Assembly: GCA_026417175.1 (NCBI GenBank)
Contig: JAOADT010000001.1
Span: 38,918 to 102,917 of the forward strand
DNA from: Deltaproteobacteria bacterium
GTDB taxonomy: Bacteria; Desulfobacterota; Syntrophorhabdia; Syntrophorhabdales; JANXAF01
Reading direction: 5' to 3'
DNA: 64,000 bases
Shown: positions 49,328 through 56,605 of the stretch, piece after piece
Position numbering within the stretch: the first letter of the stretch is position 1
How the letters are laid out: each line of letters opens with the position of its first letter
Position numbers and translations under genes: made by a program
Notes under the pieces: generated by a model
The model's input: the letters and a program-made list of their open reading frames with translations, nothing else
Told to the model about the DNA's origin: nothing
Databases searched by the model: none

Positions 49328-49828
49328 CTACATCTGGGAAATAGTTAGCAATAAAGGCCAGGGGTACTCGCCAGGCTTTATTTCATCTAGTATAAACTTG
49401 TAATCCAGCTTTAACGAAAATCTTCTTTCTCCTTTCAAAATTATAACACCCCCGTCTGGTCCCATCTTTGTCTCGCCAAATTGACCTCGCACAAGTACTT
49501 CTTTAAAAATCCCTTTTTCAACTGTGTCAAAGGCAAGCACACAACCCATCCTAGAGTTTGTCGTAAGCTCTACTATTGTCGCAGCCTGAATCTCTACATA
49601 ACCCCTGCTTACATCTTCCTCAGTAATCTTCACCTTTTTCTCCTGGTGTACAATATTTGTTTTTATATAATCTTTAACAAATGCACTGACTGTCAAAGTG
49701 GTGCTCTCTCTTCTACCCTCGGCAAGTACATCATTTACTAAAAAAAATGAAGACAGAAGTAAAAAAGAGATACACAAAGCTAGCCTCCTCTGTATCATCA
49801 GCACTTTTTCTATGGCTTGGGGCTCCAC
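49328..49828 (-). CDS. Hypothetical secreted protein at the distal end of the pilus operon
   Basis: 166-aa ORF. Probable start at MIQRRLALCISFLLLSSFFLVNDVLA (49798), which gives a signal peptide. The remainder is beta-rich, with no recognised family. Confidence 0.5.
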   Translation of the reverse strand: MEPQAIEKVLMIQRRLALCISFLLLSSFFLVNDVLAEGRRESTTLTVSAFVKDYIKTNIVHQEKKVKITEEDVSRGYVEIQAATIVELTTNSRMGCVLAFDTVEKGIFKEVLVRGQFGETKMGPDGGVIILKGERRFSLKLDYKFILDEIKPGEYPWPLLLTISQM

Positions 49829-49854
49829 TAAACCAAGATCTACAAGTATTTCTC

Positions 49855-50130
49855 CTAGCTTTTTGTGAGGTCTTTTTTCTGTTCCATAAGGGCCTTCTTA
49901 ACCTTTTCCTCACTTATGAAGCCTGACCATGCGAGTAACTCCCCTACTCTAAACCCACTAAGACCCAACATGCCTTTTCCTGCTTTCTCTTCTTTCACGA
50001 GAGGGTGTTCTATGGTAAGAGGAACGGGGAGATGTACACTTTCTCCTTTCAGCAAACTAAAGATCTTAAGAATATCCATCTCGTCTTTTTGCCAGTCAAC
50101 TACTATATATTTCGACTTATTGTTCTTCAT
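49855..50130 (-). CDS. Hypothetical small protein with a C-terminal GspE/MshE-N-terminal-like helix motif
   Basis: 91 aa. RVGELLAWSGFISEEKVKKALMEQKK resembles the lGelLv..g.it.eql..AL..Qk motif of T2SS-E N-terminal domains. Confidence 0.4.
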   Translation of the reverse strand: MKNNKSKYIVVDWQKDEMDILKIFSLLKGESVHLPVPLTIEHPLVKEEKAGKGMLGLSGFRVGELLAWSGFISEEKVKKALMEQKKDLTKS

Positions 50131-50147
50131 TTCTCTTTTCTGTTAAT

Positions 50148-50597
50148 TCAGTAACTAATGGTAACAGCCAATTGATCTGTGTAAAATCCCGTGCCCACCT
50201 CTTGGGTTGCAAATACTCTTCCGTAAACTTTTAAAAGAACACTGGAATTCTTTTTTACGTTTGCACGGACAGTATAAGTACCCGATGTGCCATCTCCCCA
50301 TATTCGTGTTCTTGCCGCATCAGTGTAAATGTTGTAATTTAGCATCTCTCCATACTCAACATTTCTTAATCTTCTCGGATTAAATCCGGAGTTAGAACTT
50401 GGTCCAATCGATACCTGCACGTTAGAAGTTTTATCACAATATATCGTTAAAATACCAGTATAATCTGTATGGGAAGAGGAAAGTGGATTATATTCTGAAA
50501 ACGTAAGATTCGAAGCAGTTATTGTACAGAAGCCAATGGCTTTTTCACAAATAAAAAGGAAAATAGATATAGCTAGAAAACTATTTCTCCCAAACAA
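50148..50597 (-). CDS. Spore-coat-U (SCPU) domain pilin-like protein (Csu-type minor subunit)
   Basis: 149 aa. Signal peptide. NYNIYTDAARTRIWGDG and the C-terminal ..YTDQLAVTISY are typical of SCPU/CsuA-B proteins. Confidence 0.65.
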   Translation of the reverse strand: MFGRNSFLAISIFLFICEKAIGFCTITASNLTFSEYNPLSSSHTDYTGILTIYCDKTSNVQVSIGPSSNSGFNPRRLRNVEYGEMLNYNIYTDAARTRIWGDGTSGTYTVRANVKKNSSVLLKVYGRVFATQEVGTGFYTDQLAVTISY

Positions 50598-52796
50598 TTA
50601 TTTCCCCTATATCTATGAAAGGTTCAGAATTATCTGGTATAGAAAGGTGGAAAATGTAGAGCTTTTCTCCGATTATTACTTCCCCCCTGTAGGTACCCGG
50701 ATTAAGGTCTTCTATATAAAATTCTCCTCCCCTTCCGATCAAAAACTTTACCTCTTTTTCCCCATGGCCAAGGATGGCTTCAGAAAGCTCGATAGGTTCT
50801 CCTCCTATTTTTCGCATCCTACCGGTCACCGCACATACCCTTTTCGGGATAAAATCAACGAGGGATCCACCCTTTCGTGGTACGGATAGCTCCTTTTTGT
50901 AATAGGAAAGGCTATAGTCTAAGGGTATATCCTTATCATTTACCTTTATCTCACTTATCAATCTCGATGGAAATGAAGCGATGGCTATCTTACCGTCTTT
51001 TTCAGTTTTTCCAATTTCATTATTTTCTTTGTAGATTCTTACCCCTTCCATATTGGGTACTCGAACTATCAAAAAACCATCATATACTGGTCTGGAAAGG
51101 GCAAACTCTCCTCCCGCGTAAAGTAAGCTTCCCGAACTGCTAATAGTAAGAGCCTTATTTTCATGAACAAGCGAATAAATTCCGTATCTCGAATCGTACT
51201 GTAGACGCGGTTTAATTACTGTATCTCTTTTTTCTGAGTTTACTTCTAAATAGTAACTTAATCCTTCCGCTTGAGGTGGCTTTTTTTGAATTTTAAATCT
51301 CACGTTATCTTCTCGAACACCTAATGTCAAAAAATGTTCTCCAAATTTGTAACTTAAAGAGAGAAAAGCAGTTTTCTTTTCTTTGGAGCTCAGCCCATTG
51401 ATATACAGGACAACATTTTTACTGAGGTTCCTTGAGTAGGAGCCGGAAAGTGTAGCTATTTTTCTAATCTCGTCTCTTATGTAACCCAAAGAAAAAGATC
51501 CAATCTCTGATTTACCGAAACTCAAAGATGATGCTGCAAAAATTCCACGTTTGTCCCACTGTTGTACAACCGTAGCATAATTCTTTTCTATCCAGGCTAT
51601 ATTGAGATCTATCCCGAAATTCTTCGTAAAAAACGAGTAACTTGTCGATAAGCCATAACTTTGATTCCTTCCCCATAAACTAAATGAGGTGTTTATATCG
51701 AAAGAACCGTATAAAGTTGAGATAGTGATTCCTGGACCGAGATTTCCTAACTTGTGTTTCCACTCGCCTCTTAGCCCTGCCGTTAAATTTTTATTGATTC
51801 CGTATCTGTGGATAAATGAAAACACTGGATCTGAGTATTTCTCGCCTTTTTTTAGAAAACCCAAATTATAGCTAAAATCATGTAGTCCCTTTTGTAAGTT
51901 GGATTCACAAACATAAAATGGAAGATAAATGGTCTCTTCTCTTCCAAAAACATCTTTTAAGGTGATCTCAACGTTATGCCTTCCCGTAGACCCTATGATG
52001 TCAGTTAGGCTGAAAGTTCCTGGAGAAAGTTTTTCTTTTTTAACCAAGTATCCGTCTAGAGATACTATCACTTCTGAAGGATATTTAGCGTATCCTTCAT
52101 AGCTAAAAGGCGTTGTCTTAATAAAATACGGATCAAAAGAGTAGTCTTTTGCGTAACTTATTCCTAGAAATGGAAAGCTCGAGGATAGAGCTTTACCAAT
52201 GAAATACCCATCGCCTATTGCTAGGGTTTCATATTTTTTGGGGTTTTCAAGATAAAACGTAGTATAAGTTCTTTTGAAACTTTTAACACCTTCAGAATTT
52301 TCATATACCGAACTACAAAGAAAAAGAAAGTCTCGAAATCTGATACCCAATTCCTGAGGAAACACCAGCTTCTCAACCTGGTTTCCCCTTGTAACATTTG
52401 CTCCATAATTAAAAAAGAAGCTTTTCGAATCTTCCGGTGGGAGTTTTTTTCTTTTAGGTGACACTTCGATTGTTTTTTTTGAAAGTAGACCTGGTGGAAA
52501 CTCAATATGAAGCATGGAGGTTTTTTCGTTTATATGCCATACTACACCTTCGATCTCTCTTAGTGAAACGTACTCTTCAAAAAATTTATTCTTTTTCGGT
52601 TCGTTTACACCCATTTTATAGAGATCCTCAGTCCTTATGTAAAATTCTTCATTTCTTTTCAAAATAAAGAAGTCCCCTTTTTTTTCCCATTCACTTCAAC
52701 CCCTAGAACAAGAACTTCTTCCGCAAAGCTTCGAGCTACCGCCAATAAGAAGAGAACGACCAGAAGTTTAATTCTCCAAGTGAATCCATCTTTCAA
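50581..52796 (-). CDS. Fimbrial outer-membrane usher (CsuD-like), interrupted by a -1 frameshift at an A8 tract
   Basis: The large ORF 50581..52662 has no signal peptide, and its 'M' is a TTG artefact. A 45-codon ORF begins at TTG 52796, with GAGGA 8 nt upstream. It encodes MKDGFTWRIKLLVVLFLLAVARSFA|EEVLVLGVEVNGKKKG and stops at 52659..52661. A shift of -1 within GGGAAAAAAAAGGGG (52674..52688) joins it to ...DFFILKRNEEFYIRTEDL... Confidence 0.65.
52678..52685 (-). other. A8 homopolymer / A_AAA_AAG slippery heptamer at the usher frameshift site
   Basis: The plus strand has T8 at 52678..52685. In the upstream frame the minus strand reads GGG AAA AAA AAG GGG. Confidence 0.7.
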
Positions 52797-53511
52797 TTTT
52801 GAAGTCCTCATCAGACCGGACCACAACTTGTACCTTTGAAAGCTCGCGAGCTTTAATATGATCTATCCCAAAGGAAAAATGTTTTCGTTTTCCAGGCAGT
52901 ATATACCAGCCGTTCTCACGTGAAGATATGATTTCTTCCCCGGATTTATTTAAACCCCGTATTTTTACTTCATTCGCTATAAAATGAGTATTACCCGTAT
53001 TAGAGACAGCTATAACAAGTTTATTGTCTATTATTTCTGCAATCTCTACATTGCCTGATCTCTTTTTGTAATAAGGTGACAAGAATACGGGGATGGATAC
53101 TCTAAGGAGGATACTTACGGTAGCTCCATGTTTTATGTCAGATTTTATCGGAGGTAATTCCTCTACCATTATCCTGTATGTACCCTCTTTTTCAAAGGTA
53201 CTCTTTTGGCAACCAATTCTTATTACTTTTTCCTCGGAAGGTTTTAGTTGGACAATCTTTGGAAAGATAACGATATCGTTTGTTTCCTCATAAATATCAT
53301 TTCCGTTGTCATCCTGTTCCCAAGAATATACTCTAATTTGTATACTGAGATCTTTGGTGTCTACATTCTTTATAGTAAGTTTGTCAGTTAGATTTTTAGA
53401 ATCTAGAAAAATCTTGACAGGATATATATCAAAAACTGCGCATTTCACATCAAAGCAGATCACAAAGTTAATGAGAATTAGGAAAATAAATAAGGTACGT
53501 TTTTTTACCAT
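52768..53511 (-). CDS. Periplasmic pilus chaperone (PapD-like / CsuC-like)
   Basis: 247 aa. Signal peptide, then an Ig-like fold pattern (VFDIYPVKIFL...LTIKN...IRVYSW...FPKIVQLKPSEEKVIRI). Confidence 0.7.
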   Translation of the reverse strand: MVKKRTLFIFLILINFVICFDVKCAVFDIYPVKIFLDSKNLTDKLTIKNVDTKDLSIQIRVYSWEQDDNGNDIYEETNDIVIFPKIVQLKPSEEKVIRIGCQKSTFEKEGTYRIMVEELPPIKSDIKHGATVSILLRVSIPVFLSPYYKKRSGNVEIAEIIDNKLVIAVSNTGNTHFIANEVKIRGLNKSGEEIISSRENGWYILPGKRKHFSFGIDHIKARELSKVQVVVRSDEDFKIERWIHLEN

Positions 53512-53560
53512 AGATTATCCTCCTTTGATAATAAGAAGAAAGGGGGTGTTTACCCCCTTT

Positions 53561-54025
53561 TTAGTATGAAACGGTCGCTGTGAGCGTCCTTGTGTAGTTT
53601 CCCGTCCCCACATCTTGCTGGGCAGGGATCCTACCGTAGGCCCCTATTTGGATTGGAGAAGAATTCTGAGCCTGTCCCGTAATTCCAGGGGAGTTGTTTG
53701 GAAAAGCCTGGGTACGAGCTGCATCTCTGTATATCTCGAAACTTAGCTGCTCGTTCTCCGGCCCGATCATAGTTCTCGTCCCGGAGATGTAAACGTCATA
53801 ATTAGTTCTTTTGACACACTGAATGGTAATGTTCCCATCACCATCTTTCGGGTTGGAACTCGTAGGGTCATATTCTCCAAAATTGATATCTCCTACGCTA
53901 GATATTCTGCATTTTGCCGAGACACTCGCAGTAACTTGCATGTTTGCAGTGTCAGTCGCTGCAAGGGCGAAATAAGGAGTCAAAACGATCCCGACTAAAA
54001 AGATTACCATTAGATGCTTTTTCAT
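53561..54025 (-). CDS. SCPU-domain major pilin-like protein (CsuA/B-like)
   Basis: MKKHLMVIFLVGIVLTPYFALA signal peptide. FEIYRDAARTQAF and the C-terminal YTRTLTATVSY. The ATG at 54025 is preceded by GGGAGGG. Confidence 0.65.
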   Translation of the reverse strand: MKKHLMVIFLVGIVLTPYFALAATDTANMQVTASVSAKCRISSVGDINFGEYDPTSSNPKDGDGNITIQCVKRTNYDVYISGTRTMIGPENEQLSFEIYRDAARTQAFPNNSPGITGQAQNSSPIQIGAYGRIPAQQDVGTGNYTRTLTATVSY

Positions 54026-54285
54026 ATTACCCTCCCTTAGCAATTTTTTTATAATTTTTTGAGCCCTTACTGACTTCCTTTACCTCCTTTCTGGGCCTTT
54101 ATCTGTCCAATATTAGTCGAAAAGTGTCTTAGGGCAATAATATGTGTCCGATACCTGATAGAGATAGCCTTATACCTTATAAATTTTTAGGGTATATAGC
54201 TTGATGAAAAAGTGAAAAATTTCTTTTTTTACAATTTGTATTGACACAGAATAATATTGAAGGTTACTCTTTACTTAAGTTAACT

Positions 54286-54705
54286 ATGCCTATTCTGGAA
54301 AAGGATAACGATATACGTAAAATATTAGCTGAGAGTAAAAATGTAGCTGTGTATGGGATCACGAAGGATGCTCAGAAACCAGCTTATTACGTACCTAAGG
54401 TTTTGAAAGATAAAGGGTTTAAATTGATTGGAGTGAACCCTAAATACGCAGGAGAGGAGATTTTGGGTGCAAAAGTTTTAAAATCGCTTGCTGAAATACC
54501 TGATGAGATAGACGTTATTTTAATTTTCAGACCTCCAAGCGAGGTACCTCAAATACTAAAAGAAGCTTACATTAAGGGGTTTAAAACCTTCTGGATGCAA
54601 CCGGGAACCGTAAACGACGAAGTAAAAAGGGAACTTAATGAGAAAGGATATAATGTGGTTGCGGGAAAATGCATGAAAATAGAAAGCGAGAAGCTTTTAA
54701 AATGA
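54286..54705 (+). CDS. CoA-binding domain protein (YccU/YneT-like)
   Basis: IRKILAESKNVAVYGITKDAQKPAYYVPKVLKDKGFKLIGVNPKY...VDVILIFRP. The start at ATG 54286 fits the family N-terminus; the track start is TTG 54241. Confidence 0.75.
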   Translation: MPILEKDNDIRKILAESKNVAVYGITKDAQKPAYYVPKVLKDKGFKLIGVNPKYAGEEILGAKVLKSLAEIPDEIDVILIFRPPSEVPQILKEAYIKGFKTFWMQPGTVNDEVKRELNEKGYNVVAGKCMKIESEKLLK

Positions 54706-54974
54706 AGGAGATAAGAGTTTTTACTACAAAAACTTGACCATTCTGTCATAAAGTGAAAGAGTTCCTTTCACTAAAAGGATTTACATTCCAAGAGATCGAT
54801 GTCTCTTATGATCCAGAAGCCTTGGAAGAACTCAGGAAACTCGCTCATAGACTAGTGGTACCGGCAACAGTGATAAATAATGAAGTGAAAGTAGACTTCG
54901 ACCAAAAAAACTTTAGAGGAAAAGCTAAAGTAAAGTTAAATGTCTATCATACTCTCTTTGGTGGGAAGCCCTAG
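54702..54974 (+). CDS. Glutaredoxin-like selenoprotein (U-P-F-C redox motif)
   Basis: The ATG at 54702 overlaps the upstream TGA (ATGA). The frame reads MKEIRVFTTKT-U-PFCHKVKEFLSLKGFTFQEIDV..., with TGA at 54735..54737 at the first Cys of a CPxC glutaredoxin motif. The track ORF 54753..54974 is the in-frame 3' part. Confidence 0.8.
54753..54771 (+). promoter_or_regulatory. SECIS-like stem-loop downstream of UGA 54735..54737
   Basis: GTGAAAG-AGTTC-CTTTCAC: a perfect 7-bp stem with a 5-nt loop, starting 15 nt after the UGA. Confidence 0.55.
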
Positions 54975-55923
54975 AAAAGAAGGTTCATCCGAAAGACTTC
55001 TTCGCCTACTTTTAGAAGAAATCGAAGGCAGGCCTTTCTTGAATAGAATTGTGCACGTTTCCGATTTTAACATATCTCCCTGTCAGGGTTGCCGTTTCTG
55101 CGAGGAAAAAGGGTACTGTCGCATAAAAGACGACATGGAACAACTTTATTTCTTGTTTGGGGAGTCTGATCTGATTTTGATCGCTACCCCTATATTTTTT
55201 TACAATTTTCCTGCTCAGTTTAAAGCGCTGATAGACAGAATGCAGACGCTCTGGGCCCGGAAGTATCGTTTGGGTCTGAATGATCCTAAACGTGACAAAA
55301 GGTATGCATTTATCGTTGCAGTAGGGGCCACAAAAGGGAAAAACCTTTTTCTGGGTCTGGAGCTAACAGCAAAATATTTTCTCGATGCGGTCGGTGCTAA
55401 ACTTTTCGGGCTCTGGGGTTTGAGAGGCGTGGATAAACCACAAGATATTTTTAATTTTCCAGAATCATTAGAAGAGCTCAGAGATAGAGCAAAAGGGTTA
55501 ATTGAAACCCTGTCAAAGAAAAAGAGGATCCTTTTTCTTTGTCGGGAGAACGCCTGTAGAAGCCAGATGGCAGAGGCCTTTTTTCAGTTATACGGAGGCG
55601 ACCAATTCGAAGCCTTAAGCGCGGGAGACAAACCTGCATCACAGGTGAATCCTAAAGCAATTGAGGTCATGGCCGAACAAGGTTTAGACATTTTCTATCG
55701 TAAACCTAAGAACTTGAACAATTTACTCGGTCTTGCCCCTTTTGATTGGATTGTAACTATGGGGTGCGAGATTAATTGTCCGGTTGTGCCCGCAAAAAAA
55801 AGGGTTGAATGGCAGATTGAAGACCCGTCGCACGGATCCCTACAAAAATTTAGGGAGGTGAGAGACAAGATTCACGAGAAAGTAAAAGAGCTTATGGAGG
55901 TGGTAAAAAATGAAAGAGCTTAA
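54940..55923 (+). CDS. Fusion protein: N-terminal iron-sulfur-flavoprotein (Isf)-like NADPH-dependent FMN reductase domain + C-terminal LMW-PTP/ArsC-type arsenate reductase domain
   Basis: N-terminus: [15 protein letters not shown]... with the compact Cys motif [13 protein letters not shown] (CX2CX2CX5C). C-terminus: [19 protein letters not shown] (CX5R-S P-loop), as in thioredoxin-coupled ArsC. Confidence 0.75.
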
Positions 55924-56011
55924 GGACGGATGCGTTAAACCTGCAAGAGGTCCCATTATCAAGAAAGATGGGGTAGAAGAAAGGCAAACCAATATTGATA
56001 AGGGGGTCCCT

Positions 56012-56605
56012 ATGAGAGCACGAGTCGGAAAGGAAGCTATAGATTTTGAGGCAAACGGTTTTGTGAGGGACGAAGGCTTCAAACAGATCAGACTTTCCGA
56101 TTATAAAGGTAAGTGGATAGTACTATGTTTTTATCCTGGAGATTTCACCTTTGTTTGACCAACAGAACTTGCGGCAGTTGCCGCACTATACAGCGAGTTT
56201 CAGAAGCTCAATTGCGAAGTATTATCTGTGAGCACAGACAGTCGTTTCGTACACAAGGTATGGCATGATGAAGAGCTCTCAAGGATGGTCAAAAATGGGA
56301 TTCCTTTCCCGATGCTCTCTGATCCCGGAGGAAAAATTGGAGAGCTCTACGGTGTATATGACGAAGATGCTGGTGTAGATATCCGGGGAAGATTCATAAT
56401 AGACCCAGACTTTATAATAAGGGCTGTGGAGATACTTACCCCAGAGGTCGGTAGAAACCCTGATGAGTTATTAAGACAGTTAAAGGCCTTCCAGCATGTT
56501 AGAGAAACAGGAGAGGTAACACCCTCTGGTTGGCAACCAGGCAAAGTAACACTTAAGCCCAGTCCAAATCTTGTGGGAAAGGTATGGGAGATTTGGAAGC
56601 CATAG
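56012..56605 (+). CDS. Peroxiredoxin (AhpC/Prx1 type) selenoprotein, with Sec at the peroxidatic position
   Basis: ORFs 55910..56158 and 56228..56605 are in one frame, joined by TGA 56156..56158: ...[22 protein letters not shown]..., against the canonical FYPLDFTFVCPTE. Probable start [14 protein letters not shown] at 56012, with AGGGGG 5 nt upstream. An alternative upstream ATG lies at 55910. Confidence 0.85.
56170..56185 (+). promoter_or_regulatory. SECIS-like stem-loop downstream of UGA 56156..56158
   Basis: TGCGGC-AGTT-GCCGCA: a perfect 6-bp GC-rich stem with a 4-nt loop, starting 11 nt after the UGA. Confidence 0.55.

Follow-up and report, generated by a model that had tools for sequence, protein, structure and literature searches.

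A block of four same-strand genes was analyzed in a 64,000-nucleotide stretch of contig JAOADT010000001.1 from Deltaproteobacteria bacterium (assembly GCA_026417175.1). The whole stretch is referred to as the window, and the block lies at positions 54241–56605 on its + strand. In order, the genes encode a coenzyme A (CoA)-binding protein of the CoA_binding_2 family, a glutaredoxin-like protein containing selenocysteine (Sec), referred to as Sec-Grx, a fusion of an FMN_red flavoprotein domain to a low-molecular-weight (LMW) ArsC-like domain, and a Sec-peroxiredoxin of the PrxU family (Sec-PrxU). With slightly better than even confidence, and on sequence grounds, we read the block as an oxygen/peroxide-defense operon of a strictly anaerobic, glutathione-free organism of the Desulfobacterota type, in which the Sec-Grx is the partner of the fusion.

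A preliminary description of this DNA, made from the letters alone, had seen four co-directional genes here, and Pfam and NCBIfam domain matches bore them out, with corrections to details. Both selenoproteins are ordinary members of known families; the novelty lies in the uncharacterized fusion and in the clade-specific module of Sec-Grx, fusion, and PrxU. The recharging of thiol and selenol peroxidases in glutathione-free strict anaerobes is only partly understood. The fusion family has at least about 1,800 relatives and is a regular part of rubredoxin/flavodiiron/desulfoferrodoxin/cytochrome bd clusters, yet it is unstudied. In some lineages, the fusion is accompanied by a redoxin of its own, either the Sec-Grx or a glutaredoxin joined to the catalytic domain of ferredoxin:thioredoxin reductase (Grx::FTR). 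If our reading is true, the fusion could represent a new electron route into peroxide defense, or the ArsC fold could act on a substrate not previously assigned to it.

The fusion protein and its oxygen-defense setting

The fusion gene is a single open reading frame (ORF) of 327 aa (54940–55923, + strand; Pfam PF03358 + PF01451). The N-terminal domain matched the flavodoxin-like FMN_red family (PF03358, 68.3 bits against a threshold of 24), and it carries the cysteines C48-x2-C51-x2-C54-x5-C60, a spacing that fits the compact CX2CX2CX4-7C motif of the iron-sulfur flavoprotein (Isf) type. Judged from this motif, it is probably an Isf-like flavin mononucleotide (FMN) domain bearing a [4Fe-4S] cluster. 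The Isf of Methanosarcina thermophila performs ferredoxin-dependent reduction of O2/H2O2. The fusion resembles this protein in its FMN_red flavodoxin-like fold, in having a compact CX2CX2CX5C motif close to the N-terminus, and in its oxidative-stress context in an anaerobic organism, although it matched no Isf structure or curated model. It differs in having one motif cysteine that varies across the fusion family and an extra C-terminal ArsC-like domain. When the N-terminal domain was compared with PDB sequences, there was no match at E ≤ 1e-5; with the threshold relaxed, the best one was 1rli, a flavodoxin-like protein of B. subtilis.

The C-terminal domain matched the LMW protein tyrosine phosphatase/ArsC family (LMWPc, PF01451, 78.8 bits). 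It contains a P-loop (C201-x5-R207-S208), a relay pair of cysteines (C276/C280, in GCEINCP), and D295. Among 30 fusion homologues, C48, C54, C60, C201, R207, S208, C276, and C280 were invariant, and D295 was conserved in at least 90%. The best PDB match of the ArsC-like domain was 3t38, the thioredoxin-dependent Cg_ArsC1' of Corynebacterium glutamicum, and the alignment placed GCGDVCP of Cg_ArsC1' opposite GCEINCP of the fusion. The AlphaFold (AF2) model of the fusion (pLDDT 91, pTM 0.88) was superposed on ArsC structures with a TM-score of 0.86, and its N-terminal domain on FMN azoreductases and SP1951. Taken together, alignment and model predict that the ArsC-like domain is a complete three-cysteine disulfide-cascade ArsC fold, the kind that is reduced by a thioredoxin (Trx)-fold protein. 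It shares its fold, the CX5R-S P-loop, the cysteine relay, and the aspartate with the Trx-coupled LMW arsenate reductases (S. aureus pI258 ArsC and Cg_ArsC1', 3t38). Unlike these, it is joined to a flavoprotein, it scored below all three curated ArsC equivalog cut-offs (90.9 vs 215, 88.3 vs 174.3, and 89.3 vs 157.6), and it is embedded in oxygen-defense clusters and not in an ars operon.

A search for the fusion family gave 1847 proteins at E ≤ 1e-30, and both Pfam domains were present in every one of the 120 top matches. The homologues, from Desulfobacterota and some Spirochaetota metagenome-assembled genomes (MAGs), were named 'NAD(P)H-dependent oxidoreductase', 'flavin reductase', or 'arsenate reductase', and no paper on an FMN_red::ArsC-like fusion was found in the literature. 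For a neighbor census, same-strand genes were scored at 76 full-length fusion loci, and the Pfam names of the neighbors were checked. Rubredoxin or a Flavin_Reduct::rubredoxin protein (Hrb) was present at 44 loci, a flavodiiron protein at 37, desulfoferrodoxin at 27, rubrerythrin at 19, and the cytochrome bd subunits CydA and CydB at 14 and 15, respectively. A small class III cytochrome c was encoded at 30 loci, directly upstream of the fusion in most of these. Fewer loci had DUF166 (10/76), SufC and SufBD (7/76), Sec-Grx (5/76), a Glutaredoxin(CGHC) with an FTR catalytic domain (5/76), PrxU (5/76, or 6 when the contig of locus L103 is counted), or the CoA-binding gene (4/76). The arsenite transporter gene ACR3 was present at none (0/76). 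Where at least 3 kb of flank was available, 44 of 56 loci had at least one oxygen-defense gene.

The fusion is a regular member of the oxygen-defense clusters of anaerobes, not of ars operons. The peroxide/oxygen-defense role proposed in the preliminary description is strongly supported by this context. Most family members lie inside clusters like the rbo(dfx)-rub-roo and cydAB oxygen-defense operons of sulfate reducers, whereas the fusion copy in the window does not have those neighbors: it is accompanied only by Grx, PrxU, and the CoA-binding gene, followed by a tripartite ATP-independent periplasmic (TRAP) transporter. This copy has lost the rubredoxin/flavodiiron-type neighbors that are typical of the family.

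Arsenate detoxification had been the other function considered for the block. In such a scheme, arsenate would be reduced by the ArsC-like domain, the Sec-Grx would recharge this domain, and an ACR3 encoded elsewhere would export the arsenite. The catalytic set is complete (CX5R-S, Cys relay, Asp), the domain is the sole LMW-ArsC domain in the genome, an ACR3 gene is present (split between contigs C20 and C46), and homologues are called 'arsenate reductase' in some databases. However, no arsR, acr3, arsB, or arsA was found near the block, the absence of ACR3 extends to every fusion locus of the census, and the ACR3 of the genome has no ars neighbors. The domain also reached only 88–91 bits against curated ArsC cut-offs of 158–215, and the family context is consistently that of oxygen defense. 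The arsenate scheme is very improbable on this evidence, and the substrate of the ArsC-like domain is probably not arsenate. If so, 'arsenate reductase' labels on fusion genes in sediment and groundwater metagenomes are probably misleading.

Two selenoproteins of known families

Both in-frame TGAs of the block are selenocysteine codons, because the genome (2.15 Mb, 39% G+C) contains a tRNA-Sec and SelB, and conserved hairpins follow both UGAs. The presence of two selenoproteins, as originally described, was confirmed in this way. The tRNA-Sec gene is located on contig C44 (C44:61120-61215), and SelB scored 382.6 bits against a cut-off of 242. The UGA of the Grx gene (54735–54737) is followed after 15 nt by a predicted hairpin of the selenocysteine insertion sequence (SECIS) type at 54753–54771 (+ strand), with a 7-bp stem (GUGAAAG/CUUUCAC) and the loop AGUUC. 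In five distinct orthologous genes, all 35 of 35 pair cells of this stem were standard pairs (100% paired), including two compensatory pairs (U-A/C-G and G-C/A-U), though the encoded amino acids differ in the region. When the pairing was slid as a control, the paired fraction fell to 31–60%. In the PrxU gene, the UGA at 56156–56158 (U83) is followed after 11 nt by a predicted SECIS-type hairpin at 56170–56185 (+ strand; UGCGGC-AGUU-GCCGCA). Its core, CGGC-RGUY-GCCG, was kept in 24 distinct PrxU genes, with a G-C/A-U exchange at the stem base. No Rfam family matched either hairpin.

The Sec-Grx gene (54702–54974 as assembled, + strand) encodes the N-terminus MKEIRVFTTKT-U-PFC, in which the TGA is the first active-site position (T-U-P-F-C). 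The protein matched the glutaredoxin family (PF00462) with 60.6 bits against a gathering threshold of 22.9 and has the C/UxxC motif after beta-1. It fell below the curated cut-offs of the YruB-type family (TIGR02196, 60.3 vs 88.55) and the Uxx-star family (NF041212, 58.6 vs 66). Orthologues with TGA at the same position were found at loci L231, L103, L233, and L234. Glutathione synthetase (gshB, TIGR01380) was not found in the 96% complete genome, in which gshA and gshF were not searched for. A thioredoxin reductase (TrxR) is encoded elsewhere in the genome.

Selenoprotein families with Prx TxxU and Grx UxxC motifs are already listed (table of PMC13188914; Table 1 of PMC1794560, Zhang et al. 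2006), and the window protein shares with the known selenoprotein glutaredoxins the Grx fold and the UxxC motif. In Clostridium oremlandii, according to PMC4333827, which cites Kim et al. 2011, a Sec-Grx and not Trx recycles a 1-Cys Sec-MsrA. That system and the one envisaged for the window have in common that a selenoprotein redoxin serves a Sec enzyme in which the usual resolving cysteine is missing. The window Grx differs from known selenoprotein glutaredoxins in its scores below the YruB and Uxx-star cut-offs and in belonging to a genome with no glutathione synthetase match. It also differs in its neighbor, a flavoprotein::ArsC-like fusion, and in its candidate client, a peroxiredoxin.

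The PrxU gene (55910–56605, + strand) encodes 231 aa and matched NF040737 with 366.5 bits against a cut-off of 270, residues 6–230 covering model positions 2–230 of 233. The active site is FTFV-U-PTEL, with the TGA at the peroxidatic position. The canonical C-terminal resolving cysteine is replaced (EVTPSGW in the window, A/V-T-P-S-G-W across 24 PrxU sequences), and the window protein, having no EVCP-motif resolving cysteine, is not a typical 2-Cys peroxiredoxin of the AhpC/Prx1 type. The earlier statement that this peroxiredoxin has no resolving cysteine holds for the canonical C-terminal one, but a family-invariant N-terminal cysteine is present. It lies in an N-terminal extension of ~35 residues with the motif [DE][GS]CVKP[AS][KR]GP, found in 24/24 distinct sequences (loci L175–L203, L231, and L250, plus the window). 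In the window it is Cys8 (codon 55931–55933), a candidate resolving or relay residue as judged from this conservation; no description of the motif was found in the literature.

The known counterpart of the window protein is PrxU of Eubacterium acidaminophilum, a peroxiredoxin that uses selenocysteine (Sohling et al. 2001, as cited in PMC13188914); NCBIfam calls the NF040737 family thioredoxin-dependent. Like the E. acidaminophilum protein, the window PrxU lies above the curated cut-off, has the TxxU site, and is without an AhpC-type C-terminal resolving cysteine. Nothing essential distinguishes the two, and only the linkage to Sec-Grx and the fusion is special to the clade of the window. A PrxU-family gene was present in 32 of 96 genomes of the same class, with a single in-frame TGA in 31 of the 32.

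Sec-Grx as proposed partner of the fusion

The closest fusion homologue (P0002, 64% identity) is encoded in the same block, CoA-binding – Sec-Grx – fusion – Sec-PrxU – DctPQM, in which the Sec-Grx (T-U-V-F-C) is ATGA-coupled to the CoA-binding gene. The entire four-gene block plus DctPQM is repeated at L231. Two metagenome homologues (51–52% identity) have the order Sec-PrxU – desulfoferrodoxin – Zn-ribbon – Flavin_Reduct::rubredoxin – flavodiiron protein – DUF166 – Sec-Grx – fusion. The order is the same in L103, a Thermodesulfobacteriota MAG, where the CoA-binding gene is just downstream and the contig also carries PrxU, upstream of rubredoxin. The Sec-Grx gene is directly upstream of the fusion (<40 nt) in all five lineages (window, L231/L232, L233, L234, and L103), and PrxU is in the same cluster in 5/5 lineages of this clade. 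The rest of the neighborhood differs, being CoA-binding/TRAP in some lineages and DUF166/flavodiiron/desulfoferrodoxin in others. In a maximum-likelihood tree of the 76 fusion proteins, the five Sec-Grx lineages and the close genome G001 formed one clade (support 100/99), with path lengths of up to ~1.8 substitutions per site. It follows that the Sec-Grx association has one origin, survived extensive rearrangement, and disappeared in G001 and its relative G002.

These were the only two of 41 close genomes with a full-length fusion, and both belong to the same family as the window; an alignment-based scan of genome contigs found nine fusions. Their gene order is rpsT – PxxKW protein – CoA-binding – fusion – TRAP dctP. 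Loss of the Sec trait as the cause of their missing selenoprotein genes was rejected, as SelB is kept in both. Since they carry the fusion but no Grx, the fusion works without the Sec-Grx. Among the 96 genomes of the class, none of the other three genes lay within 1.5 kb of 29 other PrxU loci or 25 other Grx-like loci, and no common redox partner adjoined PrxU elsewhere within the same distance. From class-level synteny alone, the block would have been a one-off, which was overturned by the metagenome relatives carrying the same core. Conservation of the four-gene block, named as a check in the preliminary description, stood for the three-gene core (Sec-Grx, fusion, PrxU) in five lineages, while PrxU and Grx were unlinked elsewhere.

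A second kind of redoxin is found in sister lineages, where a Glutaredoxin(CGHC)::FeThRed_B protein, FeThRed_B being the FTR catalytic domain, is encoded upstream of the fusion (e.g. L250:3965-4531). The distance to the fusion is ~340–390 nt in four loci (L250, L247, L251, and L299) and several kb in L264 and L307; in some fusion loci, the Grx and FTR parts appear as separate or frame-shifted ORFs. Because this upstream redoxin has its own FTR-type reductase, a redoxin looks like a donor to the fusion. The presence of TrxR in the genome, the lack of a glutathione synthetase match, and the Clostridium oremlandii MsrA precedent also argue for the Sec-Grx as donor. The sequence evidence makes it more likely that the Sec-Grx donates electrons to C276–C280 and PrxU than that it accepts them from the flavin domain, as had been suggested at the outset.

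In the mechanism that we propose, the Sec-Grx would act as a Trx-fold protein dedicated to the fusion. Playing the part that thioredoxin has with pI258 ArsC or Cg_ArsC1', it would reduce the C276–C280 disulfide in the ArsC-like domain, which would then reduce an oxidized substrate at its C201 P-loop. The Sec-Grx could also recycle PrxU, acting either on its selenenic acid or on a Se–S bond to Cys8. The Isf-like domain would scavenge O2/H2O2 with low-potential electrons, as the Methanosarcina Isf does, or feed the thiol relay. Candidate reductants of the Sec-Grx are TrxR and the flavin domain of the fusion itself.

Alternatively, the four genes may encode independent antioxidant enzymes under one stress-inducible promoter, with no exchange of electrons between them, PrxU and the ArsC-like domain depending on the general thioredoxin system. 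Clustering of oxygen-defense genes is common in anaerobes, and many unrelated scavengers surround the fusion. PrxU is alone at all the other class-level loci and bears the thioredoxin-dependent NCBIfam name, and G001 and G002 have no Grx. Against this, the adjacency of Sec-Grx and fusion (<40 nt) was kept in every lineage of the deep clade while all else was rearranged, and a second, unrelated-looking redoxin (Grx::FTR) is found upstream of the fusion in other lineages. Independent action is rather unlikely for these reasons.

A linear chain was also weighed, close to the one first suggested for the block, in which electrons would pass from NAD(P)H or ferredoxin to the Isf-like domain, possibly through the ArsC-like cysteine relay, and on to Sec-Grx and Sec-PrxU. 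The fusion would in that case be a new redoxin reductase, an AhpF analogue driving a selenium-based peroxidase. Several observations favor such a chain: a deep clade has kept Grx, fusion, and PrxU together as a core, translational coupling between the genes is tight, no glutathione is expected to recharge the Grx (no glutathione synthetase match), and the predicted model places the two domains confidently in a single body (pTM 0.88). PrxU also co-locates only with redoxin-bearing fusion loci, being present at one Grx::FTR fusion locus and at 0/66 fusion loci without a redoxin. The block is similar to the AhpF/AhpC and TrxR/Trx/Prx systems in that a flavoprotein, a Trx-fold carrier, and a peroxiredoxin are co-encoded. 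In contrast to those systems, the window flavoprotein is of the FMN/Fe-S type, without the pyridine-nucleotide-disulfide fold, and carrier and peroxidase are both selenoproteins.

The chain is opposed by the sister lineages, in which the CGHC-type redoxin encoded upstream comes with an FTR-type reductase of its own, either fused or as a separate partner, and so looks like a donor. Most fusion loci have neither redoxin nor peroxiredoxin, G001 and G002 are without both, PrxU has its invariant N-terminal cysteine and is usually alone, and TrxR is available in the genome. To our knowledge, no FMN-type reductase reduces a disulfide through an ArsC fold, which counts further against it. Dependence of PrxU on Grx, a part of the original proposal, is contradicted by the solitary PrxU loci (29/29 others) and by the genome overlap of only 2 against ~9 expected. 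The linear chain is unlikely in our view. Its specific form, in which the fusion would be a new low-potential ferredoxin/FMN/[4Fe-4S] redoxin reductase whose ArsC-fold relay charges Sec-Grx and through it Sec-PrxU, is likewise unlikely. If true, it would represent an all-selenium peroxidase chain of strict anaerobes that is independent of glutathione and NAD(P)H, and the ATGA-coupled CoA-binding protein may tie this chain to CoA as the low-molecular-weight thiol.

Several points weigh against the reading that we prefer, a defense operon with the Sec-Grx as partner of the fusion. C51 of the Isf-type motif is not invariant in the 30 homologues, and the Isf assignment comes only from the cysteine motif, no Isf structure having been matched. 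G001 and G002 keep the CoA-binding gene, the fusion, and the TRAP genes without Grx or Sec-PrxU, with SelB retained. Any obligatory chain is disfavored, since most fusion loci are without redoxin or Prx and these two genomes without both. PrxU stands alone at 29/29 other class-level loci and as a rule has no linked Grx; 32 genomes encode PrxU and 26 encode a Grx relative, but just 2 encode both, where ~9 are expected by chance. Finally, the Sec-Grx association is of single origin and counts as one event, not five.

Gene boundaries and neighboring genes

The CoA_binding_2 gene (YccU/YneT-like, 139 aa) occupies 54286–54705 (+ strand) and matched PF13380 with 113.8 bits against a gathering threshold of 22.8. 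Its start had been placed at TTG 54241, wrongly: ATG 54286 gives an N-terminus, MPILEKDNDIRKIL, that matches the CoA-binding orthologues in G001, G002, L231, and L103, and the TTG lies within or just after a promoter-like site. This site (TTTACA-16-AATAAT, 54228–54255, + strand, 10/12 matches) is weak evidence, as promoter-like sites in the region were no more numerous than in shuffled sequence. No internal plus-strand terminator was seen in the block in the promoter/terminator scan, whose counts were no better than those in shuffled sequence. The CoA_binding_2 gene adjoins the fusion gene in five related genomes. The ATGA coupling of its stop to the Grx start (54702) was borne out, and the same coupling is present in L231.

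The 35-nt overlap of Grx and fusion given in the preliminary description stems from a 1-nt indel in an A7 run (54904–54910), and a homopolymer assembly error likely lies behind it. In the assembled frame, Grx ends at 54974 in a 21-residue tail without conservation. Past the A7 run, the alternative frame reads TLEEKLK-stop, the C-terminus of every relative (ALEEKLK in relatives). Judged from this match, the true or ancestral Grx stop is probably TAA 54931–54933, 6 nt before the fusion ATG. The PrxU gene overlaps the fusion stop by 14 nt; as the PrxU model covers residues 6–230, ATG 55910 with the ribosome-binding site GGAGGTGG is its true start.

In G001 and G002 (loci L003 and L004), the CoA-binding gene directly follows the gene for the cysteine-rich PxxKW protein. 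In the window (49328–54043), an archaic chaperone-usher pilus operon separates the two genes and looks like an insertion. G002 also has a canonical 2-Cys peroxiredoxin elsewhere in its genome (FVCPTE...EVCPAKW; L321, G002:C9:5200-7900). That gene adjoins a radical-SAM-like gene and a gene that, by sequence appearance, encodes a putative pyridine-nucleotide-disulfide oxidoreductase of the Nox/CoA-disulfide-reductase type. The sole ACR3 gene of the window organism is split over two contig ends (C20:20391-21158 and C46:1-328) and adjoins pepP/efp and a nucleotidyl-transferase-like gene.

The class III cytochrome c found upstream of the fusion (30 loci among L243–L307, e.g. L298:5596-5949) has a signal peptide and three CxxCH motifs. 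Its gene ends ~10–60 nt before the fusion start in most of these loci, often with cydAB before it. The cytochrome is presumed to be periplasmic and the fusion cytoplasmic, so the genes are paired despite differing compartments. DUF166 precedes the Sec-Grx gene in L103, L233, and L234. In a sister clade (L102, L104–L109, and L283), the order is SufC-like ABC ATPase – SufBD – DUF166 – fusion – histidine kinase, and this histidine kinase bears an N-terminal rubrerythrin-like domain.

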